DNA of 64,000 nucleotides from Candidatus Uhrbacteria bacterium (GTDB lineage Bacteria; Patescibacteriota; Patescibacteriia; JACRJV01): contig JACRJV010000026.1 in the NCBI GenBank assembly GCA_016215325.1, positions 95,955 to 159,954 on the forward strand, read 5' to 3'. The position numbers and the translations under genes were made by a program. Of the stretch, positions 4,786-55,401 are shown one piece after another (the first letter of the stretch is position 1; every line of letters starts with the position of its first letter). The notes beneath the pieces were generated by a model. It was not told where the DNA came from, did not search any database, and saw nothing but the letters and a program-made list of their open reading frames with translations.

Positions 4786-6774
<1,989 letters not shown>

Positions 6775-8054: not shown

Positions 8055-9896
8055 TCACTGCAGCAACTCTCCGACCACCGCATCGCCTTCAGACAACCCC
8101 GACTGAACTTCAACCCACCCATCATCCCCTCGCATGCCAATGGTCACCGTACGCGATTGGAGCTTACCATCCCCCATCAATACCGTCACAGCGGCGGGTG
8201 TTGTTTTGGGGGCAAGCCAACCCGGTATCGCAACCACGGGATTGCCCGTGCTCAATACGATTGTTGCTGTTACTGATGCAGATCCCCCCTCTGCCACAGA
8301 CCGCAATGGAGAAAGTTGAATAACACCCGCATCCGTCCGCCCGTGGACAATCGCAGTTTCAACGCTGGTTGCACTTCCGGTACCCGTAAGTTCCACAACC
8401 ATTCCCGGTGCAATAGTCGCAGCGTCGTTGGGGTCAACCTGTGTTTCCAACGTAGCGCCTATCGAACGGATACGAAGCAATGGCTCGCCCGCGTGCACGA
8501 CATCACCGATATGCACCAACGTTGCATCAATAACACCCGCAACCGGGGCATGGATCGTCAGTTCCTCCAGAGCCTCTTGTTGGAGGGCCACGTTCGTTTG
8601 CAACGCCGCAGATCCTTTTGCACTCGCAGGAGCCCGCTGACCACCCTTCGTCTTTGCGTCAAAGAGTGCCGAGAGTCGCTTCTGTTGCTCGATCAATGCC
8701 GAACGCTGTTGCCGGCTTGCGACAACCTGGGCCCAGGCAGAGGCAATCGCGCGGTCATAAGCGGTCAATTCTTTTGACCGTGCAATAAACGCGGCCTGCA
8801 GCGCCGCTCGGATTTGCTGCCCCGCCGCAAGCTCCTTTGCTAGGCTGTCCCCTCGTTCTTGCCAAACCCCAAGAAATCGCTGTTCATGCGCTTGGAGGGT
8901 ATCAAGGGTCGCCTCGATCGCAGATCGATTGCGCTCGATCAATCGCTCTGTGGCTTGATGCTCGGCCAGCGGGAACTTGTCCGACGGTTCAATCGTTCCC
9001 AGAAGGTCTTTGAGCCCACCGAGGATATCAATTGCCGTTTCACTAATAGCCTTAGAAGTCAACAACAGTTGTTGTTCCGCTTGCGCGTCATCGCTTGCCG
9101 GTTGCTTCAAACGATCCGAAACGATTCTTTGGAGGCGCTGGGCCTCCAGCAATTTTTCCCACAACGGTACCGCCAATTGCGGTTGGGGCAACGCCTTCAG
9201 GAAACTGCTCGTGGTCCCATCCACACCGAACAACGAACGGATATCGCTCAAGGTCAGGTCTTCAGACAGTGCCCCCCCTTCCACCGAGATCCGCATGAGC
9301 GATATGGCATCCTGCACTTCTTTGGACTGGGACTGTTGTTCTCCTTGGGTCGCTGGTTGCGGCAAATCCGCCAAGTCTTTCTCAAACCCCGCAATCGCAT
9401 CCTGTATTTTTTTTAGCACCTGCTCATGCTCGGCAACAACGGTGCGGGCACGCTGCAACGCCTGGTCCGCTTGCTTGTTGGCAGTATTCAGTTTGCCCTC
9501 AAGACTTTGAAGTTGGTCACTCGCTTCTCGCGCGCTCATCGTGGAATCGGCGACCGGCATCGATTGAAGATATTGCTCTACGGCGCTCAACACCAGATTC
9601 TCTTGAGCCGACCGCTCAAATTCAACCAACACATCCCCCCGGGCTACGGTCTGCCCCTCCAAGGCGGGAACAATACTCACAATCCCGTCGCGCGCCGCCT
9701 TCACCTCAACAAGCGTGTCGGTGCCGGTCCGATGCGCCGTTGTTTGGATCCGTCGTGTAATAGGGCGCAGTTGCGCCTTCACTGTGGGCACCGGAGTTTT
9801 GGCAAACCCGCGATACACGGTCCAGGCACCCACCACAACGGCCCAAAGGCCGAGCAGCATGATAAGCGTGCGCGCTTGCGGAGAACGAGAAAGCAT
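8055..9896 (-). CDS. HlyD-family membrane-fusion / periplasmic adaptor protein with an unusually long coiled coil
   Basis: N-terminal TM; biotinyl/lipoyl-like beta start (EVKAARDGIVSIVPALEGQTVARGDVLVEFE); about 350 aa of coiled coil; C-terminal beta-barrel segment (HAPVAGVIDATLVHIGDVV…VTIGMRGDDGWVEVQSGLSEGDAVV). Confidence 0.55.
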   Translation of the reverse strand: MLSRSPQARTLIMLLGLWAVVVGAWTVYRGFAKTPVPTVKAQLRPITRRIQTTAHRTGTDTLVEVKAARDGIVSIVPALEGQTVARGDVLVEFERSAQENLVLSAVEQYLQSMPVADSTMSAREASDQLQSLEGKLNTANKQADQALQRARTVVAEHEQVLKKIQDAIAGFEKDLADLPQPATQGEQQSQSKEVQDAISLMRISVEGGALSEDLTLSDIRSLFGVDGTTSSFLKALPQPQLAVPLWEKLLEAQRLQRIVSDRLKQPASDDAQAEQQLLLTSKAISETAIDILGGLKDLLGTIEPSDKFPLAEHQATERLIERNRSAIEATLDTLQAHEQRFLGVWQERGDSLAKELAAGQQIRAALQAAFIARSKELTAYDRAIASAWAQVVASRQQRSALIEQQKRLSALFDAKTKGGQRAPASAKGSAALQTNVALQQEALEELTIHAPVAGVIDATLVHIGDVVHAGEPLLRIRSIGATLETQVDPNDAATIAPGMVVELTGTGSATSVETAIVHGRTDAGVIQLSPLRSVAEGGSASVTATIVLSTGNPVVAIPGWLAPKTTPAAVTVLMGDGKLQSRTVTIGMRGDDGWVEVQSGLSEGDAVVGELLQ

Positions 9897-10223
9897 AGAT
9901 ACTCTCTAGTATATCCTAACATTGGGCAATTCAGCAATTGGGTATTATGTGGATCGTAGCTCTCGTCATACGTAAGGAGTATACCAACGAGCTTCTACAT
10001 CCCAATTTCGCCATTCTGGTCACCGCAGCGGGCGGAGTCCCGCCCTCGGCGTTGCCTTGGGCAGAATCTGACGAAATTGACTTGAGTACAATGCCCGACC
10101 TGGACAAGATTCCAGGTTTGTGCTATACTTACTTCTCAAAAAGAAACTGCCGTGCTGACAAACGTCGAGGTTCGCCCACAGTTATCGATTTGAATTTTAT
10201 TCGCCCATTTCTTGACTATTGCT

Positions 10224-10427
10224 ATGCAACAAGGAACAATCGCCCGTCTCACAGACCGTGGCTTTGGATTTATCGCCCGCGAAGGTGAGGAAAAAGAACT
10301 CTTTTTCCACGCTAGCGCCCTGGTCGGTGTCCAATTCACCGATCTCAAAGAGGGGGACAAAGTGACCTTCGAAGTCGGACAAGGCCCAAAAGGCCCGAAC
10401 GCCACGAATGTCCAACGCGTGAGCTAA
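10224..10427 (+). CDS. cspA: Cold-shock protein (CspA family)
   Basis: MQQGTIARLTDRGFGFIAREGEEKELFFHASAL… carries the RNP1/RNP2 motifs; 67 aa. Confidence 0.9.
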   Translation: MQQGTIARLTDRGFGFIAREGEEKELFFHASALVGVQFTDLKEGDKVTFEVGQGPKGPNATNVQRVS

Positions 10428-10439
10428 CTCCTTCCGCAA

Positions 10440-10470
10440 AAAACACTCCGGTTCACCGGAGTGTTTTTAT
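10440..10470 (+). terminator. Rho-independent terminator of cspA
   Basis: Stem aacactccgg / ccggagtgtt with a ttca loop, followed by TTTTAT. Confidence 0.8.
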
Positions 10471-10526
10471 GTACCAAAATTCTTCGGAATGGGAGAGTGC
10501 TGGGGGTCATAACCCGTTTTTATGTT

Positions 10527-11003
10527 TTACAAATCACTCACGTTGTCTGGCAGATGATCGATTCCGCCAAATTCTTTAACAATGATGGATTTGATTTTTT
10601 GTTTCATTTCCGGTTTTACGAAAGTAATGGTCATTCCTTTTTCGCCGCCGATACTTTCGCAATCGTCTTCGATTAAAATTTCGGGTATGACACGCTCTGC
10701 TACATCTTTGTATTCTTCGGCATCTTTTCTAAATTCCAAAGTACCTGTGGGGAAATTTTGTAGGACACCACGAATATCATTGATCTCTTTATCAGTTCGG
10801 CGAGAAGTTAAATAAACGATTTCCTCACCTTGCTCTTTCCATTTTTTGATTTTCTCAATAGCATCTCCAATCGGTACATATTCAGCGTAACTTTTTACGG
10901 AGGACTCTTGCTCTATAACTTGCTTAACAATTGTAGAGCGGTCATGTCCGACTCCATTTTTTGGCATTAAGATTGTACCTTCGGTAAAGATGAGGATTTT
11001 CAT
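10527..11003 (-). CDS. Hypothetical protein in an AT-rich insertion
   Basis: 158-aa ORF with clean coding appearance. Its 4-nt overlap with the downstream gene suggests an operon. No motif recognised. Confidence 0.4.
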   Translation of the reverse strand: MKILIFTEGTILMPKNGVGHDRSTIVKQVIEQESSVKSYAEYVPIGDAIEKIKKWKEQGEEIVYLTSRRTDKEINDIRGVLQNFPTGTLEFRKDAEEYKDVAERVIPEILIEDDCESIGGEKGMTITFVKPEMKQKIKSIIVKEFGGIDHLPDNVSDL

Positions 11004-11398
11004 ATATTTGCCTTCATAACTAATTCTTTGTGTCCGCTTTCCGAGTCAAACTCTCTTGAGAATTCCAAATCCTCAATCTCCCCAATAGCAACCTCTGCCG
11101 TAACTCCAACCACTGAACCGTCCTTTAAGTGTCCACCAAAAGTTTTACCCTCTTCATCAGAAAGACAAACATGGATATGACTATTTCCCGCTTCTACCGT
11201 TCCAACTACGGAAACAATTTCAAAACTCCCATCCCATGTCTTAATAATTTTTGCGTTAGCCATGCGCAAAACAGCTTTTGTTAAATTGCCCACGCAAGTA
11301 AGAATGATGCCAGCGCGAATATTATTTTGTACAACATATTTATCAATTTCTTCTTTGAAGTTTTGTCCTGGATGCAAACGAAAGATGTGAGTTTTCAT
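11000..11398 (-). CDS. PPC (DUF296) domain DNA-binding protein
   Basis: Matches the PPC/DUF296 pattern: …NIRAGIILTCVGNLTKAVLR…FEIVSVVGTV…HIHVCLSDEEGKTFGGHL. Confidence 0.5.
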   Translation of the reverse strand: MKTHIFRLHPGQNFKEEIDKYVVQNNIRAGIILTCVGNLTKAVLRMANAKIIKTWDGSFEIVSVVGTVEAGNSHIHVCLSDEEGKTFGGHLKDGSVVGVTAEVAIGEIEDLEFSREFDSESGHKELVMKANI

Positions 11399-11540
11399 AG
11401 TTTATTCTCTGAATAAGTCCATCTCCTTATTCCACTTCTCAACTCGCAATATAGCATTTTTGTACACTGTCGATTTTGGCTGGTCAATCAATTCTGCTAA
11501 ATCGCAAAGTTCGTTGATTCGCCCGTAGATTACCATTCGC

Positions 11541-11582
11541 AAAATGGGGTCAGCCACCAAATGAAAATGGGGTCAGCCACCA
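11541..11582. repeat. Left terminal repeat of the RAYT element: tandem aaaatggggtcagccacca x2
   Basis: It is an imperfect inverted repeat of tggtgactgaccctatttttcatttgg at 12270-12296. Confidence 0.55.
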
Positions 11583-12247
11583 TTTCTTGGCCTCCCAACC
11601 CCACGCACCGTTTGATCCAGTCCAAAGCGTTGAATCATTGTACTCTGCCATTCTGGTTCTCCAAAGGGCATGCTTTTTAGTACACTCCGTTGAATAGATT
11701 TTTCCTCATCTTCGGTCTGCGGCTTGTTAAGCCACGTGAGATACCCCCTACCCGGTGGAATGGGCCAGATAGACAATAACTTTTTTTGTTCATCGGAACC
11801 ATTCTCTCTTCTCCAAACACTTGACCACTTCCAATCTTCTGCCTTTTCTACAATGTTTGCCCGTTTTGCATTGCGCTCCACGTATCGAACCAATGTAAGA
11901 AAATATATATCGTCCTGCACGAGAAATGCCTTATAGCGACCTTGATACAAGTGGCCTTGTCCAATAGTTTCTTTTTGCGCGTGCCATCGGCGCGTATGCG
12001 TATTGGTGAGCCAGCCCATAAACTGAGAAAGATCCCCATCGTTCTGAGGATGCACCACTAGATGCCAATGATTTGGCATGACACAATATGCCAGTAAACG
12101 CATCTTGTACTTTTCGATCGCCTCCTCGAGGATTTCTTCGAACTGTTGGTAGTCTTTCTTATTATCAAAGATACGCACGCGAGCGTTAGCGCGATTGAGA
12201 ACGTGATAGATATAATCGCCAGCATCGACGCGTGCTAATCTGGGCAT
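11573..12247 (-). CDS. IS200/IS605-family Y1 (HUH) transposase, RAYT / REP-associated tyrosine transposase type
   Basis: HUH motif CVMPNHWHLVV; N-terminal YHVLNRANAR; YxxxY…RY tyrosine region (RYVERNAKRANIV). Confidence 0.7.
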   Translation of the reverse strand: MPRLARVDAGDYIYHVLNRANARVRIFDNKKDYQQFEEILEEAIEKYKMRLLAYCVMPNHWHLVVHPQNDGDLSQFMGWLTNTHTRRWHAQKETIGQGHLYQGRYKAFLVQDDIYFLTLVRYVERNAKRANIVEKAEDWKWSSVWRRENGSDEQKKLLSIWPIPPGRGYLTWLNKPQTEDEEKSIQRSVLKSMPFGEPEWQSTMIQRFGLDQTVRGVGRPRNGG

Positions 12248-12269
12248 ATGATAGCATTATATCATAATA

Positions 12270-12296
12270 TGGTGACTGACCCTATTTTTCATTTGG
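12270..12296. repeat. Right terminal inverted repeat of the RAYT element
   Basis: tggtgactgaccctatttttcatttgg is approximately the reverse complement of aaatgaaaatggggtcagccacca. Confidence 0.55.
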
Positions 12297-12575
12297 AACA
12301 AACCCAAAATGCCTGGCTCGAACCCATGCGAGAATGGATAAAAGAGGCCCAAACTATAGGTGCAATCGCAAGGAATGACGACCTCTTTGCGAAAAAGGTC
12401 ATCGCCAAAAAAATATTTGGCTCAAACCTCCGTTTGGGGACCCGAAATTTAACGCTCGAATCGATATCGGAGGGGGGAAATGTATTGAAAACCAAAGAGG
12501 AAACGCACTGGGCGGCCTTTGTGGCCGCCCGTGAAAAGTTTTTGCGTTGTCCGGAAATGGACGTTTGTATGATGT

Positions 12576-12653
12576 TGGTAGCCCCATGGGGATTCGAACC
12601 CCAGTTTTCTGGCTGAGAACCAGACGTCCTAGACCGGGCTAGACGATGAGGCC
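12576..12653 (-). tRNA. tRNA-Glu, anticodon CUC, with encoded CCA and a G1-U72 wobble pair
   Basis: On the minus strand: GGCCTCA TC GTC… anticodon arm TCTGG-TTCTCAG-CCAGA; T-arm TGGGG-TTCGAAT-CCCCA; 3' acceptor TGGGGCT-A-CCA. The acceptor pairs throughout, with two G-U wobbles. Confidence 0.6.
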
Positions 12654-12700
12654 CCGAAAGACTGAACTTGAGTATACTCAAACGCTCGCGAATAGACAAT

Positions 12701-23980: not shown

Positions 23981-24931
23981 TTATACGTGTTCGGCGGCCC
24001 GCAATCGTGCACTGCGCGAGGTGGGGTACTGGCGGAGTTCTTCGGTCGAAGGAGTAATAGATCTTGCCGTTAACAATTTGACGGTCGCCGAGGTACCGCA
24101 AATGCAAATCGGCGCCTCGGGCGGGCAAACGCAGGACTTCGCTAACATCCGCAGCGTCTGTTTTACAATCCGATCTTCGAGCGAATGATACGAAATAATC
24201 ACAATCCGGCCGTTTGGGTTCAGGACATCCACCCACACCTTGATGGCACGCTGGATAATGGCCAGCTCATCATTGACCGCAATCCGAAGGGCTTGGAGCA
24301 CCAGTGTCATCGGATTGTGGCGGCGATGCGCTCGCACAAGAGGGACAACAAGGAACTCTAACTCGCCAACAGTGGTCAGCGGCGATACGCCGCGATACTG
24401 GACGATAGTGCGTGCAAGCTGTTTTGCAGATGGCACTTCTCCATATTCGCGCAACCAGCGTTCGATCTCTTGCGCACTCTTGTCGCGTAAGAGGTCTGCA
24501 GCGGTCGGGATGGCGGCGCTCGGATCAAATCGCAGATCCAACGGGGCGGAGGCGTAGCGGAAACTCATCCCGCGTCTGGGATCTTCGAGGTGCTGGATCG
24601 CCACTCCCAGATCGAGCAGCACTCCATCGACGTGGGTTTTACCGGCAGCCCCGAGAATCTCTGCCACGTGGTCATAAGAGTTATGGACAAGCATGACACA
24701 ACTCTTCCAGGCAGCAAGGGTTTCCGCGGCAGCCAGCAGCTGCTGCGGATCTCGATCGACGCCGATGAGCATCCCATCATGACCAGCGCAAATGACTTCT
24801 GCAATGCGTTTGGCATGCCCTCCGGATCCGACAGTACCATCGACCACTGTCTGACCGGGAGCGCACGCTAAGTATTGAATAGCTTCATTCGCGAGGACGG
24901 GATGATGGCTCAAAAAAATTCCAATTTCCAA
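23981..24931 (-). CDS. rsmH: 16S rRNA (cytosine1402-N4)-methyltransferase RsmH / MraW
   Basis: VDGTVGSGGHA…, DLGVA-type SAM-binding motifs; gene adjacent to mraZ. Confidence 0.85.
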   Translation of the reverse strand: MEIGIFLSHHPVLANEAIQYLACAPGQTVVDGTVGSGGHAKRIAEVICAGHDGMLIGVDRDPQQLLAAAETLAAWKSCVMLVHNSYDHVAEILGAAGKTHVDGVLLDLGVAIQHLEDPRRGMSFRYASAPLDLRFDPSAAIPTAADLLRDKSAQEIERWLREYGEVPSAKQLARTIVQYRGVSPLTTVGELEFLVVPLVRAHRRHNPMTLVLQALRIAVNDELAIIQRAIKVWVDVLNPNGRIVIISYHSLEDRIVKQTLRMLAKSCVCPPEAPICICGTSATVKLLTARSITPSTEELRQYPTSRSARLRAAEHV

Positions 24932-25004
24932 TTTCCAATTTCCAATGAGCGATCGGCATCGATATTGAAAATTGAAAATTGAAAATTCATTGTAAATTGA
25001 AAAT
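24918..25004. repeat. mraZ-rsmH intergenic palindrome: (TTCCAAT)x4 on the left arm, (GAAAATT)n on the right
   Basis: attccaatttccaatttccaatttccaat … gaaaattgaaaattgaaaattcattgtaaattgaaaattt. Confidence 0.7.
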
Positions 25005-25469
25005 TTATACTCCCAGTTCTCTCATCTGCTCGGCAATATCCACACTATTGGTTTCTGCCTGGAGCTTGTACTGCTCCCACGCCTCCTCATCCCATAATTC
25101 GATCCGAGAATACAAACCGGCGACAACCACCTGCTTATTCAACTTTGCGTATTGGCGGAGGTATTCGGGCAATACGATCCGACCATTACCATCGAGCTCC
25201 GCGTCCATAGCGCCGCCGAACATGAGCCGAGCGAATGCCCGCGGATTGGATTGGGATATCGGCAGCGCGGAGAGCTTTTCTGCCAACTGCTTCCAGGAGT
25301 CTGCGGGGAACAAAAAAAGACACTGGTCAATTCCGCGAGTAACAACAGCGCCTTTCTTGAATTGTGCTTGATATTTTTTGGGGATGGCAAGCCGCCCCTT
25401 ATCGTCCAATGTGTGGTGGTATTCTCCGATGAAGATTGCCATACGTGAATGAACAGGACTTATCCCCAC
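25005..25469 (-). CDS. mraZ: Transcriptional regulator MraZ
   Basis: MFLGEYHHTLDDKGRLAIP motif duplicated (…GAMDAELDGNGRIVLP…). Confidence 0.9.
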   Translation of the reverse strand: MGISPVHSRMAIFIGEYHHTLDDKGRLAIPKKYQAQFKKGAVVTRGIDQCLFLFPADSWKQLAEKLSALPISQSNPRAFARLMFGGAMDAELDGNGRIVLPEYLRQYAKLNKQVVVAGLYSRIELWDEEAWEQYKLQAETNSVDIAEQMRELGV

Positions 25470-28915: not shown

Positions 28916-28992
28916 GAGTGAATCCCGCTTAGCCAGTGAATCCCGCCGGCCAGCTACTGGCTCACCGGATTTACTGGATTTACTGGATTTAC
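28916..28992. repeat. rplJ-rplL intergenic palindrome: (AGTGAATCCCGC)x2 on the left arm, (GGATTTACT)x3 on the right
   Basis: gagtgaatcccgcttagccagtgaatcccgcc … ggatttactggatttactggatttact. Confidence 0.65.
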
Positions 28993-29514
28993 TTATTTCT
29001 TAGAATTTCCAATCGCGTCAATAACACTGACGAGTTGTCGAATATTGGCATTGAGCGCTCCCACCACGCCGGAAATCGGCGCATTGAGTAACCCAACCAA
29101 TTGGCCGCGCAGTTGTTGTTTTGTCGGCAGCGTACTCACCGCTGTGACCTCTTCCGCAGTAATCCATCGCCCCTCGAAGATTCCCCCGAGCGGGTTGATC
29201 ACCTCATTTTTCTTGCGGAAGGTCATCAAGACCTTTGCGGGTGCGACTTCGTCGCCATATCCCAGCAACAGACTGATGCTCCCGGCTAAGCTGCGGGCCG
29301 ACACGGTCCAACCCGTGTCCTTCACCGCCACGTCAAGCAAAGTTTTCTTGACCGAGACATATTCAGCCTGTTCTGCTTCCAGTTGTTTGCGCAGCTCCTG
29401 GCTCTGAGCAACGCTCATCGCGTTGTAGCTTGCAACCACAACAGACTTGGCACGGCCCAAATGATCCTTGAGCCCGGCAACGATTTCTTCTTTTCGACTT
29501 CGTGTTTTTGCCAT
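28993..29514 (-). CDS. rplJ: 50S ribosomal protein L10
   Basis: [19 protein letters not shown]…[21 protein letters not shown]. Confidence 0.85.
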
Positions 29515-32160: not shown

Positions 32161-32201
32161 AATTTGGACATCAAAAATTTTATTGGGAATTGGGAATTAG
32201 A
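32143..32201. repeat. Weak member of the heptamer-palindrome family (…ctaattatcaaaat … attgggaattgggaattag)
   Basis: Read from the sequence. Confidence 0.4.
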
Positions 32202-32937
32202 TATTATGTTTCCGTATAATAATATTTTTTGCTGCTTGATACCTCTCTATCGTCTTCTTCCACCATGGCAAATATTTAAAGGGGGCGTGATACGCGAATG
32301 AGGGAACCCACTGGCTCATGGTCCCGCCGGTGGCTATGGTGTAGAGTACTTCCGGGATGAATACCCCCCTGCCGCCGCGCTCGGCAATTGTTAAAAAGAG
32401 GTCCCAGTCCTGGAATTTCTTGAGGCTCTCGTCAAACCGCGGGAAGGCACCGCGGCGCAGTAAAGAGCTAGTATGAATGTAGTTCAATTGGCGCAATGTT
32501 GCAAGATCAAAGGGGAATGAACTAAACTTCTTATGACTAAAAAGGAATTGGCTGTAGCTGAATGCCGCGTCCGGGTGTTGCTCGAGCGCTTCCCACATTT
32601 TTTCAAGACAATCCGGCTCCAGACGAATATCGGCATCACAAAAAAAGAGAAGGTCACCATTGCAAGCATCAAACCCGCGATTGCGCGCAGCGGCTGCTCC
32701 CCTATTTTGTTGATCAATCCATTGTATGGAGAATCCCTTACGTTGTAGTAAATCTGCAATCTGCAATCTGCAATCTGCAATCGTATCCGTCGATCCATCA
32801 TTGACAATAATAATCTCAGTTTCTATTCTAATGTTTTTAAGAACATTAGAATAGATAGATTGTTCAAGAATACTCTCGACACAGGCTTCGAGTTCTTTGG
32901 CGTGATTATATACCGGGATGATGATCGAAACTAGCAT
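32197..32937 (-). CDS. Family 2 glycosyltransferase
   Basis: MLVSIIIPVYN…; IIVNDGSTD; …FCDAD. Confidence 0.8.
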   Translation of the reverse strand: MLVSIIIPVYNHAKELEACVESILEQSIYSNVLKNIRIETEIIIVNDGSTDTIADCRLQIADLLQRKGFSIQWIDQQNRGAAAARNRGFDACNGDLLFFCDADIRLEPDCLEKMWEALEQHPDAAFSYSQFLFSHKKFSSFPFDLATLRQLNYIHTSSLLRRGAFPRFDESLKKFQDWDLFLTIAERGGRGVFIPEVLYTIATGGTMSQWVPSFAYHAPFKYLPWWKKTIERYQAAKNIIIRKHNI

Positions 32938-33003
32938 AATCTAAGTCACAGAGGTACAATAGTCGCAACACTGCTAGAGTATCAGAAGCATCAAAAATCA
33001 ACA

Positions 33004-33330
33004 ATGTTTATGGATCCCATTGAATTCCTCCGACAATTCCGCTTTGGTGGATATGCCATTTTCGATTTTACCACGGCATTTTTAGGCATCGCCATCATTT
33101 CGCCGTTACTGTCAAAACTGTTCCGCAAGATCAGACTCGATATCCCCAAACGAAACTGGATATTTTTGACATTGCCAATCGGCATCATCACTCATCTACT
33201 GATCAACAAAATCACACCAATGACCGCGCGCTTCCTAGACCTCCAGGGTCATTATATTCTCAAAATAGTGATCGTCGCTCTGCTCATTCTGGGGTTACGC
33301 GGGATTAAAGTGGTCCAGAAATCTAAATAA
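33004..33330 (+). CDS. Small membrane protein (three predicted TM helices)
   Basis: Three hydrophobic segments; lies in the AT-rich island. Confidence 0.4.
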   Translation: MFMDPIEFLRQFRFGGYAIFDFTTAFLGIAIISPLLSKLFRKIRLDIPKRNWIFLTLPIGIITHLLINKITPMTARFLDLQGHYILKIVIVALLILGLRGIKVVQKSK

Positions 33331-33336
33331 CATCTT

Positions 33337-34311
33337 ATGCACCCCGACAGAACCATTCCCGGCATCACCCACACCGCAGACTCACCAATAACTGAGCATG
33401 CCTCAATGGAAGCGGATCGGACGAAGCAAAATACGGAACGAGCCGCACAAGAGCTACAGGAACGATTGGAACAGATCAAACGCGAAGTTCTCCTACTGCT
33501 AAAACAAAAAGAAGAAGCCTCCACGAGCGCCTCCCAAGAGCGCGGCAAACTTTTAGATTTATGGAGGAAGAAGCTCATTAGCTCAAAAGATGAGTTCAAA
33601 CTTCTCTCCGATAAACTTTCGGAATTAGAAAATTCTATCGACAATCAAATCGTCAGAAAGAAAACAGAGTACCGACTAACAAGAATGGAGTATCTTTCTG
33701 AAACGACTCCTCCCGATGCCATCCGCCAACGCGTACTGGACTTGCATATCGAGGATAACATCGAACAATTTACAAACCTCAGCATCCAAGCGGGGGGCTC
33801 GAATGCTCAAGGAGTTTTTGAAATTGAAAATGGTGACTTTGTGTTAATAAAGAAAGTGCCGGAAAGTTATGAATACAACGTTGCCCTGCCCTTCATCATG
33901 CAGGGAATACAAAGCGATAGGATTCCTCGTGTACTGCAAATCTTTAAAACCGATGATGCAACGTATACTGTTACAGAGAGGGCACGGGGCACTCAAGTCG
34001 ATCAACTCTCCGAGGAACAAATCGCAGAGATTCCACAAGAGCATTTTAATCAGTTCCTCCGCGATCTTGCAATGTTAGGCGAAAAAGGGTTGCAGATCGA
34101 CCCCTCCAAAAAAAGTAATTTCTTCTATGATGCTCAGAAAGGGTTTAGCATCATTGATATTGGAGACCATCACAACGCCCCAACGCAAACCGGGATACCG
34201 AACAATCTACGCGTTAACGATCTGCAAGCAATTCTCACAGGACCAAAGCAAGACCAAAGAATTATTGATAAAATCCAAGAAGCTCTTACACAGATAAATC
34301 GCCCACTATGA
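33337..34311 (+). CDS. Coiled-coil protein with a C-terminal atypical protein-kinase-like domain
   Basis: Gly-rich loop GGSNAQGVFEI; Lys strand VLIKKV; catalytic-loop-like LQIDPSKKSNFFYD; DFG-like IIDIGD. Confidence 0.35.
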   Translation: MHPDRTIPGITHTADSPITEHASMEADRTKQNTERAAQELQERLEQIKREVLLLLKQKEEASTSASQERGKLLDLWRKKLISSKDEFKLLSDKLSELENSIDNQIVRKKTEYRLTRMEYLSETTPPDAIRQRVLDLHIEDNIEQFTNLSIQAGGSNAQGVFEIENGDFVLIKKVPESYEYNVALPFIMQGIQSDRIPRVLQIFKTDDATYTVTERARGTQVDQLSEEQIAEIPQEHFNQFLRDLAMLGEKGLQIDPSKKSNFFYDAQKGFSIIDIGDHHNAPTQTGIPNNLRVNDLQAILTGPKQDQRIIDKIQEALTQINRPL

Positions 34312-34478
34312 AGGTAACACTATACATGGCAACAACCATCAATGGATATGTTTGAGTACCAAAAAATTATCGAAAGATACTATACAATTGCATTATGAGA
34401 TTTCGCGTTGATCATCATTGGTCTGCTTATTCTGGGGTTATGGAAGACAAAGACTGTGAAATAATAAGACGAACATGA

Positions 34479-34808
34479 ATGTCTAATCTAATACATATAA
34501 CATCTATGCGTCCAAAGAACCTAGGCATACTGGTCGTAATTGTGATGGTAATTATTTTAGGTGTTTCACTTTATATTGATATTGCAACAGAAAATGAAAA
34601 AATACCCCGGATTCTCACCACAACAGAGCAGTACGCGTGTCCTGACCGCAATAAACTTGATTATAACAAAACAACACAAACGTACATCCAATGGAATAAC
34701 TGCATGCCCTGTCCAGGAGTGAGACCGCCATGTCTCCCTGATTCTCAATTTGAACAATGGGTCAACAAAAATTGTGGGATAAAATTCAAAATTAACGTCG
34801 CGGAGTAG
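34479..34808 (+). CDS. Small secreted or membrane-anchored cysteine-rich protein (6 Cys)
   Basis: N-terminal signal/anchor LGILVVIVMVIILGVSLYI, then CPDR…CMPCPGVRPPC…NC. Confidence 0.4.
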   Translation: MSNLIHITSMRPKNLGILVVIVMVIILGVSLYIDIATENEKIPRILTTTEQYACPDRNKLDYNKTTQTYIQWNNCMPCPGVRPPCLPDSQFEQWVNKNCGIKFKINVAE

Positions 34809-34821
34809 AACAGACTCTTGA

Positions 34822-35817
34822 ATGCATTGTGTTATGCCCAACGCGATCGAACTCCAAAACTTGAGAAAAATATTCACGTTCTCGGTAAAAAATCCGCGCT
34901 ATAGCATTTGGAAAAACTTTTTTAATCCAGACCGTCAAGAAATCGTAGCGGTGGATTCAATATCCCTCGCGGTTGAACGCGGGGAATCTGTGGCCTTCAT
35001 CGGCCCCAACGGCGCTGGCAAATCCACGACCATCAAGATGCTCGCTGGCATTCTATACCCCACCAGCGGAACGATTTCTGTGCTGGGCTTAAATCCGCAG
35101 CGTGAGCGGCAACGCCTAAGCTACAACATTGGAACGGTGTTCGGGCAGCGCTCGCAGTTGGTGTTTAATCTTCCGGTTCGCGATTCCTTTCGGTTGTTCG
35201 GAAAAATCTATGAGCTCTCCGATCGGATGATCCAGCAGCGCCAGAAAGAATTGGTGGCGCTGTTTGCGATTGAAGACATTATGGATCAACCGGTGCGCAA
35301 ACTCTCCCTTGGGCAGCGCATGCGGGCGGAGATTGCGGTGTCGCTCATCCACCGGCCGAAGATTATTTTCTTGGACGAACCCACCATTGGCTTGGATATT
35401 GTTGCTAAGCGCCGGTTGCGCGAAGTGCTCAAGAACCTCAACCGAAAGTTTGGCACCACAATTTTCCTCACATCTCACGATGCGGGTGATATTGAGGCGC
35501 TGTGTGCGCGAACGATTATCATCAATCACGGGAGGGCGATTTTGGATATGGAAACGGCAGTCTTACAACGAAAATTTCTTACTCAAAAACGCGTGCGCGT
35601 GGATTTTAGCCAGCCCACCAAATTTACGGCGATCGCCGACACCAGACTCGTGCACCGTGATGACAATTCAGTACAGTTTATGGTTGATACGTCGAAGATT
35701 GCGCTCAAAGATGTTCTTGATGAACTGACAACACACTACTCTATTGAAGATATGGACGTCGAACATCCATCATTGGAAGAAATTATCAGCACAATCTATG
35801 GCCAGCAGGCACGGTAG
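34822..35817 (+). CDS. ABC transporter ATP-binding protein with a C-terminal extension
   Basis: Walker A GPNGAGKST; signature LSLGQRMR; Walker B IIFLDEPT; H-loop TSHD. Confidence 0.85.
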   Translation: MHCVMPNAIELQNLRKIFTFSVKNPRYSIWKNFFNPDRQEIVAVDSISLAVERGESVAFIGPNGAGKSTTIKMLAGILYPTSGTISVLGLNPQRERQRLSYNIGTVFGQRSQLVFNLPVRDSFRLFGKIYELSDRMIQQRQKELVALFAIEDIMDQPVRKLSLGQRMRAEIAVSLIHRPKIIFLDEPTIGLDIVAKRRLREVLKNLNRKFGTTIFLTSHDAGDIEALCARTIIINHGRAILDMETAVLQRKFLTQKRVRVDFSQPTKFTAIADTRLVHRDDNSVQFMVDTSKIALKDVLDELTTHYSIEDMDVEHPSLEEIISTIYGQQAR

Positions 35818-41851: not shown

Positions 41852-42417
41852 ACATCCCCGTCCTTCACCAACCCAATATCCTTAAAAAAAATTTTGATGG
41901 TCTCTCCTTCGCTGCAGTCCGCAGACGGATGTTGAAATATTTCAAAGTGGAGATGTGGCAGAAACCCATATCCGGTTCTGCCGCTATATCCAATGAGTTC
42001 GCCTTCAACCACACGTTGCCCAACATGAACCAATACTCCTTGTGGTTTAAAATGCTCATACGCGCTGTACTCATCATGATCGTGCCGAATCACCACGCGA
42101 TTGCCTTGGAGCCAATATTTTTTTGCGACCCCTCCGTAGAGTCCATCATTTTTTACCCAAACGACAAGGCCGGATGCTGCGGCTACAATCGGCGTGCCCG
42201 TTGGTACCATGATATCAATCGCATGACGCACGGTACCCGAGTGCGCCCCAGCCACCCAATCTTCAATCAACCATAATAATTTTCTCCAACGTTTTGGACC
42301 GAGACGTGATAGGTCCAAGGGCAACCGATAGTCATTTTTAGATTGCATACCCCAACACCATAGCACGATCAGAAAACTTAATATACCCCTCGATAGGCAG
42401 AAAACGTACCGACACAC
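41848..42417 (-). CDS. M23 family metallopeptidase (LytM domain) with an N-terminal signal-like segment
   Basis: HxxxD…HLHFE pattern: …VVIRHDHDEYSAYEHF…GYSGRTGYGFLPHLHFEI. Confidence 0.75.
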   Translation of the reverse strand: MCRYVFCLSRGILSFLIVLWCWGMQSKNDYRLPLDLSRLGPKRWRKLLWLIEDWVAGAHSGTVRHAIDIMVPTGTPIVAAASGLVVWVKNDGLYGGVAKKYWLQGNRVVIRHDHDEYSAYEHFKPQGVLVHVGQRVVEGELIGYSGRTGYGFLPHLHFEIFQHPSADCSEGETIKIFFKDIGLVKDGDV

Positions 42418-42452
42418 TCATTCTCACATTCTCAAGTTTGTAAGGGTGTTTG
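42415..42452. repeat. Copy 1 of the conserved 31-nt element cattctcacattctcaagtttgtaagg(g/a)tgt
   Basis: Direct repeat occurring at 42415, 43393 and 43759. Confidence 0.75.
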
Positions 42453-43392: not shown

Positions 43393-43430
43393 ACTCATTC
43401 TCACATTCTCAAGTTTGTAAGGATGTTGTT
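43393..43430. repeat. Copy 2 of the conserved 31-nt element
   Basis: actcattctcacattctcaagtttgtaaggatgttgtt. Confidence 0.75.
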
Positions 43431-43747: not shown

Positions 43748-43776
43748 AGTATATCAAAACATTCTCACATTCTCAA
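43748..43776 (-). promoter_or_regulatory. Putative sigma-70-type promoter of the ArsR gene: -35 TTGAGA (inside the 31-nt element), 17-nt spacer, -10 TATACT
   Basis: Minus strand reads TTGAGAATGTGAGAATGTTTTGATATACT; spacing counted directly. Confidence 0.35.
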
Positions 43777-43794
43777 GTTTGTAAGGATGTCAGG
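43759..43794. repeat. Copy 3 of the conserved 31-nt element
   Basis: acattctcacattctcaagtttgtaaggatgtcagg. Confidence 0.75.
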
Positions 43795-46697: not shown

Positions 46698-46789
46698 AAT
46701 TTTCAATTTTCAGTTTACAATTTTCAATTCAGTCGCATGTTTGAAAATTGTGTCTTGAAAATTCATTGGAAATTGATAATTGAAAATTT
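46698..46789. repeat. rpsK-rpsD intergenic palindrome of (AATTTTC)n and (GAAAATT)n arms
   Basis: aattttcaattttcagtttacaattttcaatt … ttgaaaattgtgtcttgaaaattcattggaaattgataattgaaaattt. Confidence 0.7.
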
Positions 46790-50494: not shown

Positions 50495-51685
50495 TTAACG
50501 TTCCACCATTTCAATAATCCCCCCTCCCAGCAGTTCAAGCCCTTCCGCAGTGTCCTGGTAGAATACCACGCTTTGGCCGGACGTCAAAGCCCGCTCCGGC
50601 TGATCGAACGTGCAGATGATCGTCTGCGCACTGGCCCCTGGAACTCCCGCCTCAGCGGGGCCCCGCCCTGGCGGTGACTGGCCCCTGGAACCTGAAACCA
50701 CGGCTGTCGCGCCCGGGTGCCGATACCGCGGCTTAGCAATCACCCGAATCGGCTCTGGTGGAGGTTGACCGCTCAACCAGTTCACTTTTGATAAAATAAC
50801 AGTCCGCGCAAAAAGCGTCTTATCTTCTGCACCGATCGAAACCACCAGAGTATTTGTTACATAATCTTTTTGTGCCACATAATACGGCCCGCCGCCGCCC
50901 AGCCCCAACCCCTCGCGCTGGCCAATCGTATAAAATGCGAGCCCGCGATGCCGGCCGATTTCCTCGCCCGTTGTGGTCACAACCACTCCTTCAGATTGCT
51001 GCCGGATTCGCGATTGTAAAAACTCTTGGACATTGTTTTTAATAAAACACACCTCTTGGCTTTCCTTTTTGAGCGCCACGGGCAACTCCATCTCTTGCGC
51101 CAATGTCCGCACCTGCGGCTTGGCGAACTCGCCAATCGGGAATAGGAGGCGCTTGAGCTTTTCTTGCGTCAAGGTATACAAAAAATACGACTGATCTTTG
51201 TGGGGGTCTTGGGCGACAAACAATCGTTGCCGAAATTGGGAATTGGGAATTGGGAATTGAAAATTTCGTACATAGTGCCCGGTGGCAAAATAAATACTCT
51301 CTTTCTCTGCTTCTGCCGCTTCAGAAAGGATCCTGTCAATCAGCTCAAACTTAATCGTTCGATTGCACTCCACGCAAGGGTTCGGGGTGAGCCCAGACTC
51401 ATATCCAACCAAAAATGGTTTCACCACGTTCTGACGAAATTGTTCTCGTAGATCCATCACCGTCAACGGGATGCCAAGGTGGTCGCACACGCGTTGGGCA
51501 TCATTCATGGCATCCAAATTGCAGCAATTGGTAAAATCCTTTCCACCCGGCACAAGGCCATCCACATCCCCCCAGTAGCGCATAAAAACTCCGCGTACCT
51601 CAAAACCGCGCTGCCCAAGCAGCGCGGCGGCGACCGAGGAATCAACTCCGCCGGACATCGCGACGTAGACTATTGTTCTATCCAC
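50495..51685 (-). CDS. mnmA: tRNA-specific 2-thiouridylase MnmA (carries an in-frame copy of the heptamer repeat)
   Basis: PP-loop VAMSGGVDSSVAA; …KDQSYFLYTL…; C-terminal GQSVVFYQD…GGGII. Confidence 0.85.
   Translation of the reverse strand: MDRTIVYVAMSGGVDSSVAAALLGQRGFEVRGVFMRYWGDVDGLVPGGKDFTNCCNLDAMNDAQRVCDHLGIPLTVMDLREQFRQNVVKPFLVGYESGLTPNPCVECNRTIKFELIDRILSEAAEAEKESIYFATGHYVRNFQFPIPNSQFRQRLFVAQDPHKDQSYFLYTLTQEKLKRLLFPIGEFAKPQVRTLAQEMELPVALKKESQEVCFIKNNVQEFLQSRIRQQSEGVVVTTTGEEIGRHRGLAFYTIGQREGLGLGGGGPYYVAQKDYVTNTLVVSIGAEDKTLFARTVILSKVNWLSGQPPPEPIRVIAKPRYRHPGATAVVSGSRGQSPPGRGPAEAGVPGASAQTIICTFDQPERALTSGQSVVFYQDTAEGLELLGGGIIEMVER
51231..51268. repeat. Intragenic copy of the (AATTGGG)n heptamer element, in-frame in mnmA (encodes NFQFPIPNSQFR)
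   Basis: cgaaattgggaattgggaattgggaattgaaaatttcg with palindromic ends cgaaatt/aatttcg. Confidence 0.65.
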
Positions 51686-53904: not shown

Positions 53905-53975
53905 TGAATTCCCAATTCCTAATCTCTAATACCCAATGAAATGGCGGGTATTGGAAATTGGAAATTGGAAATTGG
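53905..53975. repeat. Palindrome of (CCCAATT/CTAAT)n and (ATTGGAA)x3 arms between the ATPase gene and its membrane partner
   Basis: gaattcccaattcctaatctctaatacccaatg … cgggtattggaaattggaaattggaaattt. Confidence 0.7.
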
Positions 53976-53979
53976 AAAT

Positions 53980-55401
53980 TTACGCTACCGGAAGGTCTCC
54001 CGGCACTCCATCTTGCTCGTGCGCTGGCTCTTGTGCCGGTGTACGGAAGGGGGCGTGTTTCACGCCGGTAGACTCGCGCGAAATCCGCGAACCGGCATAC
54101 CGCTCCGAGACCGGCAACGCAAATGGCGGCTCGGCCTGCTTGGTGAGGGCCTTACTAATCAGCGGCGCCTTTACCGTTGCCACTGGGAAGTGGTAGAGCG
54201 TTGCGAGCTCTTCGATGTTGAGCACTTTACCCTCACCTTCTCCAGCCTCATCCTCGCGCAAATGAAACGCATGCATAAGCTTTCGTTGTTTGCTCGCAAT
54301 CCGTTCCTTCACAAAATAATATTTTGCGGCCGTCGTCACCTTCCCGCTCGGGCTCAACCCATTCATGTGTTGGGTGCTAAACTGGCGCATGGCACCCAAA
54401 ATCGGTACCACCCCCCGCGCTTTGTTAAAGACTTCTTTTTTGGCGATATACACAAATCGCATTTTGGTAAAATACCCGATCTTCGCCATTTTGAGCTGCA
54501 CCCCCTCTAACACCGCGCGTTCGCCCGGCGTTAAATATTGCACTTTATTGGGAGCCTCGTCTCCCCCGCCATGCTCACCACCGCCTTCACCCGGTGGGAA
54601 TATAAACGAAAGCAAAAATTCAAAGAGCTTAACTGGGTACCCCAATAACGTTGTGATAAAGGGTGGCGCGTGCTCACGATGCGCCCCAATCATCTCGTCG
54701 ACGATGTGCTGGGCGTGCTCTTTCCACCCATCCCCGGTCGGCTGCACGACATACTGGAGCCAAATATGCTCATCAGGTCCCAGTTTGCTCATACTCTCGA
54801 GCATTCCCGCTAAGGGGTCTTTGAGCTCTTGGCTCATGGTGTGTTCAAATTCGGGATAGGTGCGCAACGGGTAAGCTTCGTGCTTCGTAAGAATAAATTC
54901 CGTGCCCCACATGTCCCACTCCGGGTTGGGGAATTTATGCGGGAAGTGATGCGTGTAGTCTTCCACTTCGATAATCTCGGCATCCGGATACTGCGAAAAA
55001 AATGCGGCTTCGATAAGATCACGGAATGCCGTGTTGGTCCATACAAAAAATCGAATATATCCGCCGCTGGAAACAATCTCAAAGCTAAACCGCTCTTGCG
55101 TTTTGCCCAGCCACCATTTTTCGTAGAAATCTGCTCCCGAAAGCGCGCCATGCACTTGAGCAAAAATTTGTTCGACAGCTTTGGGGCTTTGTTCATTCAG
55201 TTTCGGGATATTAATCGCCAATAGCAGGAATGAACGCTGATGTTCAAAGTGATGTCGGACGCGCTTGAGCCACACGAGCTGTGAAATTTTGATACCCCCC
55301 CAGACAACAATAATCCACCCGCCGTGGGTAATGATGTACCACAAGAGGGAAAAAAATGAGAGATTCGCGAAATTCGCAAAGAAATCAAGGTTCAATACCA
55401 T
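53980..55401 (-). CDS. Hypothetical membrane protein co-oriented with, and 5' of, the VirD4-like ATPase
   Basis: N-terminal TM pair (FFSLLWYIITHGGWIIVVWGGI…); large soluble domain with a Gly-rich acidic loop GEGGGEHGGGDE. Confidence 0.45.
   Translation of the reverse strand: MVLNLDFFANFANLSFFSLLWYIITHGGWIIVVWGGIKISQLVWLKRVRHHFEHQRSFLLLAINIPKLNEQSPKAVEQIFAQVHGALSGADFYEKWWLGKTQERFSFEIVSSGGYIRFFVWTNTAFRDLIEAAFFSQYPDAEIIEVEDYTHHFPHKFPNPEWDMWGTEFILTKHEAYPLRTYPEFEHTMSQELKDPLAGMLESMSKLGPDEHIWLQYVVQPTGDGWKEHAQHIVDEMIGAHREHAPPFITTLLGYPVKLFEFLLSFIFPPGEGGGEHGGGDEAPNKVQYLTPGERAVLEGVQLKMAKIGYFTKMRFVYIAKKEVFNKARGVVPILGAMRQFSTQHMNGLSPSGKVTTAAKYYFVKERIASKQRKLMHAFHLREDEAGEGEGKVLNIEELATLYHFPVATVKAPLISKALTKQAEPPFALPVSERYAGSRISRESTGVKHAPFRTPAQEPAHEQDGVPGDLPVA

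Follow-up and report, generated by a model that had tools for sequence, protein, structure and literature searches.

A probable TIRtron in a decayed serine-integrase island at the 3' end of tRNA-Glu(CTC) in a Candidatus Uhrbacteria contig

Introduction

What kind of element is a gene for an HUH-Y1 transposase that lies between inverted repeats next to a tRNA gene, and how did it come to be there? The question is raised by a 64-kb stretch of a contig of Candidatus Uhrbacteria, a member of the Patescibacteria or candidate phyla radiation (CPR); "the window" below means this whole stretch. A preliminary description had read the segment between a csp terminator and tRNA-Glu as an AT-rich insertion with a transposase of the RAYT/IS200 type (RAYT stands for REP-associated tyrosine transposase, and REP for repetitive extragenic palindrome), and every gene, tRNA and repeat that it named is present where it had placed them. 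According to our analysis, the transposase gene and its repeats probably form a TIRtron (positions 11541-12296), that is, a one-gene unit with its own terminal inverted repeats (TIRs), situated within a mosaic, decayed serine-integrase island at the 3' end of tRNA-Glu(CTC).

To our knowledge, no branch of the RAYT/IS200 superfamily is less well understood than the enzymes of such units, the TIRYTs; we know of no established cleavage site, substrate strand or biological role for them. The names were given to RAYT-like genes with terminal inverted repeats (TIRYTs) and to the units that they form (TIRtrons) by Di Nocera, De Gregorio & Rocco 2013 (BMC Genomics 14:522; PMC3733652), and the passages of that paper on these units give a common TIR motif, GGGGWSAS, and TIRs that overlap the ends of the open reading frame (ORF). 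In the sections of Quentin et al. 2018 (PMC6006769) that deal with them, most TIRYTs are placed in subclass 2.1 of TnpA-Y1, with about 238 aa, an "SS" motif in the tail, low copy number and no REPs; this subclass is described there by an HuH motif NH[VYF]H, a Y motif Y[IV](E/H)LNP and a distal tail resembling a helix-turn-helix (HTH). The same sections describe REPtrons as a gene flanked by repeats in inverted orientation. The corresponding RAYT Group 1 is, in the relevant part of Bertels et al. 2017, the group nearest to insertion sequence (IS) behavior, still with few duplicates.

Results

A RAYT-like HUH-Y1 enzyme of class 2

The gene at 11573-12247 on the minus strand encodes a protein of 224 aa that matches the Pfam family Y1_Tnp (PF01797) over profile positions 5-121 of 121, with 77.3 bits against a gathering cut-off of 23, and contains the motif CVMPNHWHLVV. 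In an alignment of 26 sequences, H60-W-H62 and Tyr122 are invariant, and the lack of catalytic HUH and Tyr residues that the preliminary description had named as a refutation is not seen. The Y motif reads YVERNA, with N126 invariant and A127 present in at least 90% of the aligned sequences. Two further motifs mark the tail: WxWS(S), here WKWSS, in which W141 and S143 are invariant and S142 is nearly so, and an invariant GRP motif at the C terminus.

The family profile matches ISDra2 TnpA in the PDB, weakly by sequence, with Tyr122 aligned to the catalytic tyrosine ("KYIESQ"). An AlphaFold model of the protein (pLDDT 87, pTM 0.86) has a beta-alpha-beta-beta-alpha-beta-alpha core and a C-terminal tail that is predicted, with high confidence, to be helical. 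The top PDB match of this model in Foldseek is 4ER8, the E. coli REP-associated tyrosine transposase (E=3.5e-8, TM 0.70 on the target), followed by the TnpA proteins of ISDra2, IS200 and IS608. Among the NCBIfam families, REP_Tyr_transpos (NF047646) ranks first with 68.5 bits, which is under its equivalog cut-off of 80, while the protein reaches 26.2 of the 55 bits that the IS200 profile requires. Given the catalytic residues, the alignment to the ISDra2 tyrosine, the fold match to 4ER8 and the NCBIfam ranking, we conclude that the protein is a class-2, RAYT-like HUH-Y1 enzyme and not an IS200 transposase. The RAYT-like HUH-Y1 enzyme of the preliminary description was thus borne out by the HMM search that it had proposed.

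Its "IS200-type" label was not. An active IS of the IS200/IS605 type that inserted itself beside the tRNA would account for the Y1_Tnp match and for the weak sequence match to ISDra2 TnpA. Yet the IS200 profile score is below half its cut-off, the Y motif is not Y---Q, and the protein, with a conserved tail of 100 aa, measures 224 aa against about 150 aa in the available descriptions of IS200 TnpA. Moreover, the ends of the unit are inverted repeats rather than same-strand left-end and right-end (LE/RE) hairpins, tnpB is missing, the neighbors are unrelated genes, and there is no second copy of the transposase gene in the window.

The gene is framed by terminal inverted repeats that overlap its coding end

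At this locus, AAAATGGGGTCAGCCACCA occurs twice (11541-11559 and 11564-11582) with 100% identity and a period of 23 nt. The inner copy belongs to the 3' TIR (11564-11583; AATGGTGGCTGACCCCATTTT on the gene strand), and the outer one is a direct duplicate of it, which we call a stutter. The inverted partner, found by an inverted-repeat scan, comprises 20 nt at 12269-12288 that are 90% complementary to the 3' TIR and extends to 12296 with one indel; this 5' TIR (12269-12296; ...AAAATAGGGTCAGTCACCAT on the gene strand) is slightly degenerate, with AGGGTCAG in its core. The gene is thereby bracketed by inverted repeats of 20-27 nt with the core GGGGTCAG / CTGACCCC, and its TGA stop codon (11573-11575) lies inside the 3' TIR. 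Allowing up to 2 mismatches, which is the number that the 5' TIR carries, the 14-mer core has no site in the 64 kb beyond the three at the element, and a search with up to 3 mismatches, extended to the outer-arm 9-mer, likewise gives window matches at the element alone. The published motif GGGGWSAS is fitted by GGGGTCAG in both 3' copies, the 5' copy reading AGGGTCAG; among the TIRs of relatives, GGGGTCAG or GGGGACAG fit it and GGTGTCAG is one base off.

Over 6,700 homologues came out of a protein search (E <= 0.001). Identity to the query is 63-79% for the best 120, which are 222-284 aa long (nearly all 222-236) and come almost entirely from Patescibacteria, of many lineages. We retrieved 80 genomic loci of homologues (L001-L080), 76 of which could be tested for a bracket, defined as an inverted repeat with at least 13 matched bases that contains GWCAG/CTGWC. 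Such a bracket is present in 68 of the 76. The flanking repeats claimed in the preliminary description therefore not only exist in the window but recur across the family and, judging by these alignments, the bracket is a family trait and not a product of chance.

What is conserved within the repeats is a CTGAC core. In an anchored alignment of 68 distinct 3' repeats, C11, T12, G13 and C15 are invariant, and the intervening A is nearly so. The arms beside the core form an internal palindrome whose positions covary: pair 5-19 is UA in 26 repeats, AU in 20, GC in 5 and CG in 4, and its covariation of 0.183 compares with 0.067 after shuffling (0 of 500 shuffles reach it) and exceeds every slid control. 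The interior is unpaired. The motif can be read as a stem of 5-7 bp with a 9-nt loop that displays CTGAC, or, with equal right, as a duplex site that is nearly palindromic. Covariation is what supports the arms, the thermodynamics of the window's own copy not being significant.

In 53 of the 68 loci, translation ends at the TGA within the CTGAC core, and for this reason the C terminus is conserved as ...GRPKNGG*, its last residues varying with the repeat class. At the other end, the homologues carry their 5' repeat upstream of the ATG, at a distance of about 25-45 nt, and 62 of 77 loci have a TATAAT-like -10 hexamer between the two; in 39 of them exactly 6 nt separate it from the ATG, and in 38 it is preceded by TG. 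The window has TGATATAAT as a putative extended -10 box (12256-12264, minus strand), 8 nt upstream of the ATG. This position implies a leaderless or near-leaderless mRNA, with the repeat at the predicted -35 location. Metagenome-assembled genomes that hold two loci (L003/L021, L013/L058, L006/L055 and L062/L065) contain diverged paralogues with different TIR classes, as would be expected if protein and repeat co-evolve. Among the repeat classes, GCCACC alone contains the tetranucleotide GTGG, which the GGTACC, GGAACC and GGAGCC classes lack.

Partial repeat copies outside the brackets share discrete junctions

Outside both ends of most family members we found further tandem copies of the TIR, partial or full, numbering up to about nine (for example, at 5850-6000 and 6670-6820 of L020, at 5850-6000 of L019, and in L018, L012 and L007). 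When each extra copy was measured by the length of its inward match to the true repeat, the junctions fell into few places: 25 at TGAC, 13 one base further and 8 two bases further, and 23 at the full repeat, with almost none between. The 23-nt duplication of the window (11541-11582) is of the full-repeat kind. These discrete junctions suggest that DNA is broken site-specifically at C^TGAC (opposite strand, GTCA^G) in the putative loop.

The repeats might instead be regulatory palindromes only, with an operator on the 5' side and a hairpin at the mRNA end on the 3' side of a fully domesticated gene, with no cleavage and an ancestral block around it. The 5' repeat does abut the conserved -10 box and the 3' repeat does end in a T-run; the gene context is constant across samples, and identities of 63-79% hold across classes of Patescibacteria. 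However, the catalytic HUH and Tyr residues are invariant, and an operator and a terminator do not explain half-repeat stutters with a C^TGAC junction at both ends. The stems are also weak for an intrinsic terminator, and a terminator scan called none at either repeat. As to the ancestral block, the low GC content, the recombinase stump and the synteny of locus L082, all described below, favor insertion. We regard this explanation as the least probable of those weighed here.

Repeat copies are few and clustered, and the unit is probably resident

If the enzyme were a classical domesticated RAYT, it would maintain a genome-wide population of REPs or REPINs that includes the window's other short repeats. 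A RAYT is both the top structural match (4ER8) and the top NCBIfam match of the protein, the inverted flanking repeats are like those of REPtrons in the passages cited above (PMC6006769), and extra repeat copies occur within 0.3-3 kb at L045, L037, L009, L054, L051 and L025. On the other hand, neither the core, with up to 2 mismatches, nor the outer-arm 9-mer recurs in the 64 kb, and the relatives have 26 extra copies of their cognate repeats in 531 kb of flanks, clustered in 15 of 65 loci; the remaining 50 have none in flanks of up to +/-6 kb. Some of the extra copies bracket a second, tandem paralogue. The NCBIfam score falls short of the RAYT equivalog cut-off, a conserved GT[AG]G foot is missing from the repeats, and the Y motif differs from the Y---NP described for class 2. 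With the core confined to the element in the window and few, clustered copies in relatives, we rejected the hypothesis of dispersed REPs, and a REP-maintaining RAYT is improbable here. The RAYT label of the preliminary description therefore stands for the enzyme, which is RAYT-like, and fails for a REP association, given the NCBIfam score and the lack of dispersed REPs; TIRYT/TIRtron is the best published label.

The preliminary description had also linked the locus to a repeat family elsewhere in the window, a link that whole-window repeat scans did not sustain. These scans show tandem arrays of period 7 to 9 in or near intergenic DNA, with units such as ATTGGAA, AATTGGG, ATTGAAA, TTCCAAT, ACTGGATTT and AATCTGC (1140-1170, 1825-1864, 6745-6773, 24919-25005, 28955-28993, 32182-32198, 32751-32782, 46698-46788, 51233-51265 and 53950-53980), and the heptamer and octamer arrays lack the GGTCAG/CTGAC core, the 14-mer being found only at the element. 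Some of the arrays face each other, e.g., 24919-24946 and 24964-25005.

The distribution of relatives bears further on an active IS. Their locations are patchy and include RHS loci and tRNA flanks, and contig ends are no more than 300 nt away from 15 of the 80 loci, where 4.9 would be expected. Yet identical proteins stay in one context: P0108 occurs in 17 contigs, and the 8 of these that were displayed all agree in gene context; P0044 behaves likewise in several assemblies. Paralogues in the same genome are about 55-65% identical to the query and are not identical to each other, and no relatives were found in the viral contigs of IMG/VR. Together with the profile, motif, length and end structure given above, these results make an active, self-inserted IS very improbable. 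Against complete immobility stand the unrelated contexts of the loci, the excess at contig ends and the neighborhood of RHS-repeat genes described below. An exact 25-mer of the left flank of the window's element had no match in metagenome contigs.

Two side observations concern the neighborhoods of relatives. A second Y1_Tnp paralogue lies in tandem 0.1-2 kb downstream at L029, L045, L051, L054 and L056, and the one at L045 is bracketed by additional copies of the same repeat. In addition, 10 loci (including L007, L009, L011, L012 and L016) are directly downstream of giant RHS-repeat genes (1,580-1,818 aa), that is, in polymorphic-toxin loci.

The flank of tRNA-Glu is a decayed serine-integrase island

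The low-GC block that holds the unit begins right after the csp gene (10212-10427, plus strand), at whose terminator hairpin, a perfect 14-bp inverted repeat AAAAACACTCCGGT/ACCGGAGTGTTTTT (10439-10468, plus strand), we place its left edge; immediately past this hairpin the GC content steps from ~0.51 to 0.40. The GC drop claimed between this terminator and tRNA-Glu is real: the GC content is 0.424 at 10471-12575 compared with 0.514 +/- 0.028 for 2.1-kb segments of the window, which puts the block among the lowest 0.65% and 3.2 standard deviations under the mean. It is uneven within the block, with 0.38-0.40 in the part that encodes a 158-aa protein and a PCC domain protein, 0.455 in the transposase unit and 0.473 on the tRNA side.

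On the right, the block meets the 3' end of tRNA-Glu(CTC) (12576-12653, minus strand; encoded CCA), which was called by ARAGORN and is the sole match of an Rfam scan (tRNA, 54.4 bits). An ORF on the plus strand (12248-12616) runs 41 nt into the tRNA gene and ends in its T-arm ("GFEP"). It has 265 homologues in our representative library, and the full-length ones P0372, P0299 and P0336 consist of Resolvase, Recombinase and Zn_ribbon_recom domains. Homologue alignment shows that the window keeps the last ~95 residues of such a large serine recombinase (12290-12575): the first homologous residues, "HLEQTQNAW", coincide with the outer border of the 5' TIR, and the preceding residues of the ORF, "MVTDPIF", are the TIR itself. 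An intact integrase next to the tRNA is thus not what is found, as the Resolvase, Recombinase and Zn-ribbon domains are gone, and the 280 nt beside tRNA-Glu are an integrase pseudogene rather than intergenic DNA. The C termini of relatives appear to end in a tRNA overlap of the same "GFEP" type. Public data hold at least 150 short homologous ORFs, mostly of about 60-250 aa, which suggests that such stumps beside tRNAs are common in CPR bacteria.

Locus L082 has the order AsnRS-like gene, tRNA-Glu(CTC), 50 nt, HlyD-like gene, with neither csp nor the low-GC block nor the TIRtron; its AsnRS-like product is 77% identical to that of the window and its HlyD-like product 38% (amino acids). Three more distant AsnRS-like relatives (L083-L085) were tried as empty-site comparisons and rejected as uninformative, their downstream context being different. 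In a contig of a related Uhrbacteria (L081), the last 13 nt of tRNA-Glu(CTC), CCCCTATGCGGTA, stand at 10372-10384 and again at 10568-10580, 185 nt downstream, an att-like direct repeat that is a sign of elements integrating at, or excising from, the same tRNA. We conclude from the stump, L082 and L081 together that integration takes place at tRNA-Glu(CTC) in this lineage. As a whole, the block is best described, on the sequence evidence, as the remnant of a decayed serine-integrase element with later additions. It does not reflect a simple insertion of the TIRtron into the integrase gene, since the N-terminal four-fifths of the integrase is not found beyond the TIRtron.

It is likelier, then, that the tRNA location is due to the serine-integrase island than to the Y1 enzyme. 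The tRNA-adjacent hotspot of the preliminary description survives as a foreign block at the 3' end of tRNA-Glu that is absent from L082, with a different cause. Likewise, the comparison that it had proposed yielded a block-free junction of tRNA-Glu and the HlyD-like gene in the distant L082 and no empty site of the TIRtron.

Beyond the window, 13 of the 80 loci (L001, L004, L020, L026, L032, L038, L041, L044, L051, L064, L071, L073 and L078) have a tRNA gene no more than 1 kb from the transposase gene, with its 3' end towards the element in all of them (13:0); six are tRNA-Gln, and the window makes a fourteenth case. The bias in orientation fits residence in tRNA-flanking islands, though just 55-165 nt separate element and tRNA at several loci.

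Neighboring genes and other features of the window

All three minus-strand genes of the preliminary description were found. Apart from the transposase gene, they are the gene for the 158-aa protein (10527-11003), outside the TIRtron, and that for a PCC/DUF296 domain protein of 132 aa (11000-11398; Pfam PF03479, 98.9 bits), which overlaps the start of the former by 4 nt in an operon; their GC contents are 0.382 and 0.388, respectively. The 158-aa protein resembles HAD/LNS2 proteins weakly (Pfam LNS2_PITM1-3, E=0.0011, below cut-off). It has 2650 homologues, the best 120 of which, at 59-78% identity, belong to Patescibacteria and DPANN archaea. At 4075-5489 of L100, one homologue is coupled to a gene for an inosine-uridine nucleoside hydrolase, whose stop it overlaps; this hints at a HAD-like nucleotidase role in nucleoside salvage.

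A putative small ORF (11402-11560, minus strand; 52 aa from a TTG or 44 aa from an ATG) stops 3 nt short of the PCC gene, and the outer TIR copy supplies its first codons. As a candidate HTH protein or excisionase it was rejected, having no Pfam or NCBIfam match even at E=10. None of the 80 related transposase genes has homologues of the PCC protein, the 158-aa protein, the small ORF or the recombinase stump beside it. Of the three-gene insertion proposed earlier, then, the compositionally foreign block remains, but it is a mosaic in which the PCC and 158-aa genes are unlinked to the transposase.

Elsewhere in the window, a second low-GC stretch at ~32500-35000 includes the minimum (0.416 over 2.1 kb) and may be another acquired segment. 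A sequence of 35 nt, ACTCATTCTCACATTCTCAAGTTTGTAAGG..., occurs three times (42416-42450, 43393-43427 and 43757-43791) with 89-100% identity, each time between ORFs, and could be a shared regulatory element.

Discussion

How might such a unit work? The enzyme would bind its repeats through the covarying arms, either as single-stranded hairpins whose 9-nt loop displays CTGAC or as near-palindromic duplexes, and would cut and rejoin DNA by means of Tyr122 and the HUH metal site; the nick may fall at C^TGAC, as the sharp half-repeat junctions of relatives suggest. With the 5' repeat at the -35 position upstream of the extended -10 box, binding of the enzyme probably autoregulates the gene, whose mRNA would start leaderless from this box and take its stop codon from the 3' repeat. 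We picture the unit as a low-activity, resident element, neither a hopping IS nor the driver of a REP population, because it is single copy and its diverged paralogues each have their own repeat. As for the surroundings, a serine-integrase element probably integrated at tRNA-Glu(CTC), leaving the last ~95 integrase codons that the TIRtron now abuts; the rest of the block is the low-GC operon of the PCC and 158-aa genes, unlinked to TIRtrons elsewhere.

Several results weigh against parts of this picture. The DNA folds of the window's hairpins are weak, with z-scores of -0.7 to -1.2, so that a dimer might just as well bind the duplex. Neither a nick site nor a transposition event nor an empty site of the TIRtron was observed, and the predicted excision junctions GGKGTCATGACMCC and GGTGGCGCCACC are absent from 99 loci. 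The excess of loci at contig ends hints that some copies are repeated or polymorphic. L082 is distant, and the insertion of the block is for this reason inferred rather than dated; no att-like repeat of any segment of tRNA-Glu was found in 9700-12560. Serine integrases need only a 2-bp core, however, and a missing att repeat is weak evidence. Finally, the enzyme departs from subclass 2.1 as portrayed in the passages that describe it: it has NHWH where they give NH[VYF]H, and YVERNA where they give Y[IV](E/H)LNP and, for class 2 at large, Y---NP, and Pfam detects no HTH domain in its tail. With these departures, membership of subclass 2.1 proper is not proven, the comparison being one with a published description.

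A bolder proposal is that the TIRYT clade of the CPR is a domesticated nickase of single-stranded hairpin loops rather than a transposase, that it cuts its own TIRs at C^TGAC, that nicking followed by rejoining or priming makes the stutters and maybe also the heptamer and octamer arrays of CPR genomes, and that its location facing tRNA 3' ends is non-random. We consider this unlikely as a whole, if the least unlikely of the alternatives to the TIRtron reading. If true, it would constitute a new type of REP-like, repeat-generating system in ultra-small genomes. The patterns of stutter junctions and tRNA orientation are the ones most worth pursuing. The comparative data predict a hairpin with covarying arms that displays an invariant CTGAC, a nick at C^TGAC, and autoregulation through a leaderless promoter that overlaps the TIR, all in CPR bacteria, organisms with tiny genomes. 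For annotation, the label "transposase" hides a resident, single-copy element, and the flank of tRNA-Glu a decayed serine-integrase island.

The locus can be compared with four known systems. Elements of large serine recombinases that target tRNA genes resemble the tRNA-Glu flank in having a recombinase ORF that reads into the tRNA 3' end, with low-GC cargo next to it; unlike them, the island in the window has ~95 recombinase codons left and no detectable att repeat, and is dead. The E. coli TnpA-REP/RAYT, reportedly associated with REP/BIME elements in work said to be that of Ton-Hoang and of Messing, both in 2012, shares with our enzyme the HUH motif and the single catalytic Tyr (4ER8), short and imperfect palindromes in inverted orientation around the gene, and a single copy. 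It differs in its genome-wide REP population and its GTAG guide tetranucleotide, neither of which we see here, and in size: the E. coli protein has 165 aa, whereas ours has an extra conserved tail of ~60 residues and misses the NCBIfam equivalog cut-off. With the TnpA proteins of IS200/IS605 elements (IS608, ISDra2), it has in common the HUH-Y1 core fold, the aligned catalytic Tyr and an expected action on single-stranded DNA hairpins. The ends of those elements, though, are distinct, non-identical, subterminal hairpins on the same strand, and the elements are multicopy, often with tnpB, and have a TnpA of about 130-150 aa with Y---Q, in contrast to the inverted repeats, single copy, 224 aa and YVERNA of the present unit.

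The closest likeness is to the TIRYTs and TIRtrons, as these are portrayed in the passages cited in the Introduction. There, too, a RAYT-like HUH-Y1 gene is framed by TIRs rather than REPs; the TIRs overlap the ORF ends or lie at a short, fixed distance from them and are rarely or moderately repeated; the protein has about 220-240 aa and a conserved C-terminal tail with "SS", here WKWSS; and a genome has a single copy or a few that have diverged, with separate TIRs for each. The TIRYTs described in those passages come from Proteobacteria, Acidobacteria and similar phyla, whereas the present clade belongs to the Patescibacteria, and a literature search turned up no paper describing a CPR clade of these TIRYTs. 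Further traits of the clade do not appear in the passages, namely, the stop codon in the CTGAC core, the extended -10 box with its leaderless start, the half-TIR stutters and the bias towards facing tRNA 3' ends. Overall, the locus belongs to a large, strongly conserved and undescribed CPR clade of a known class of elements.

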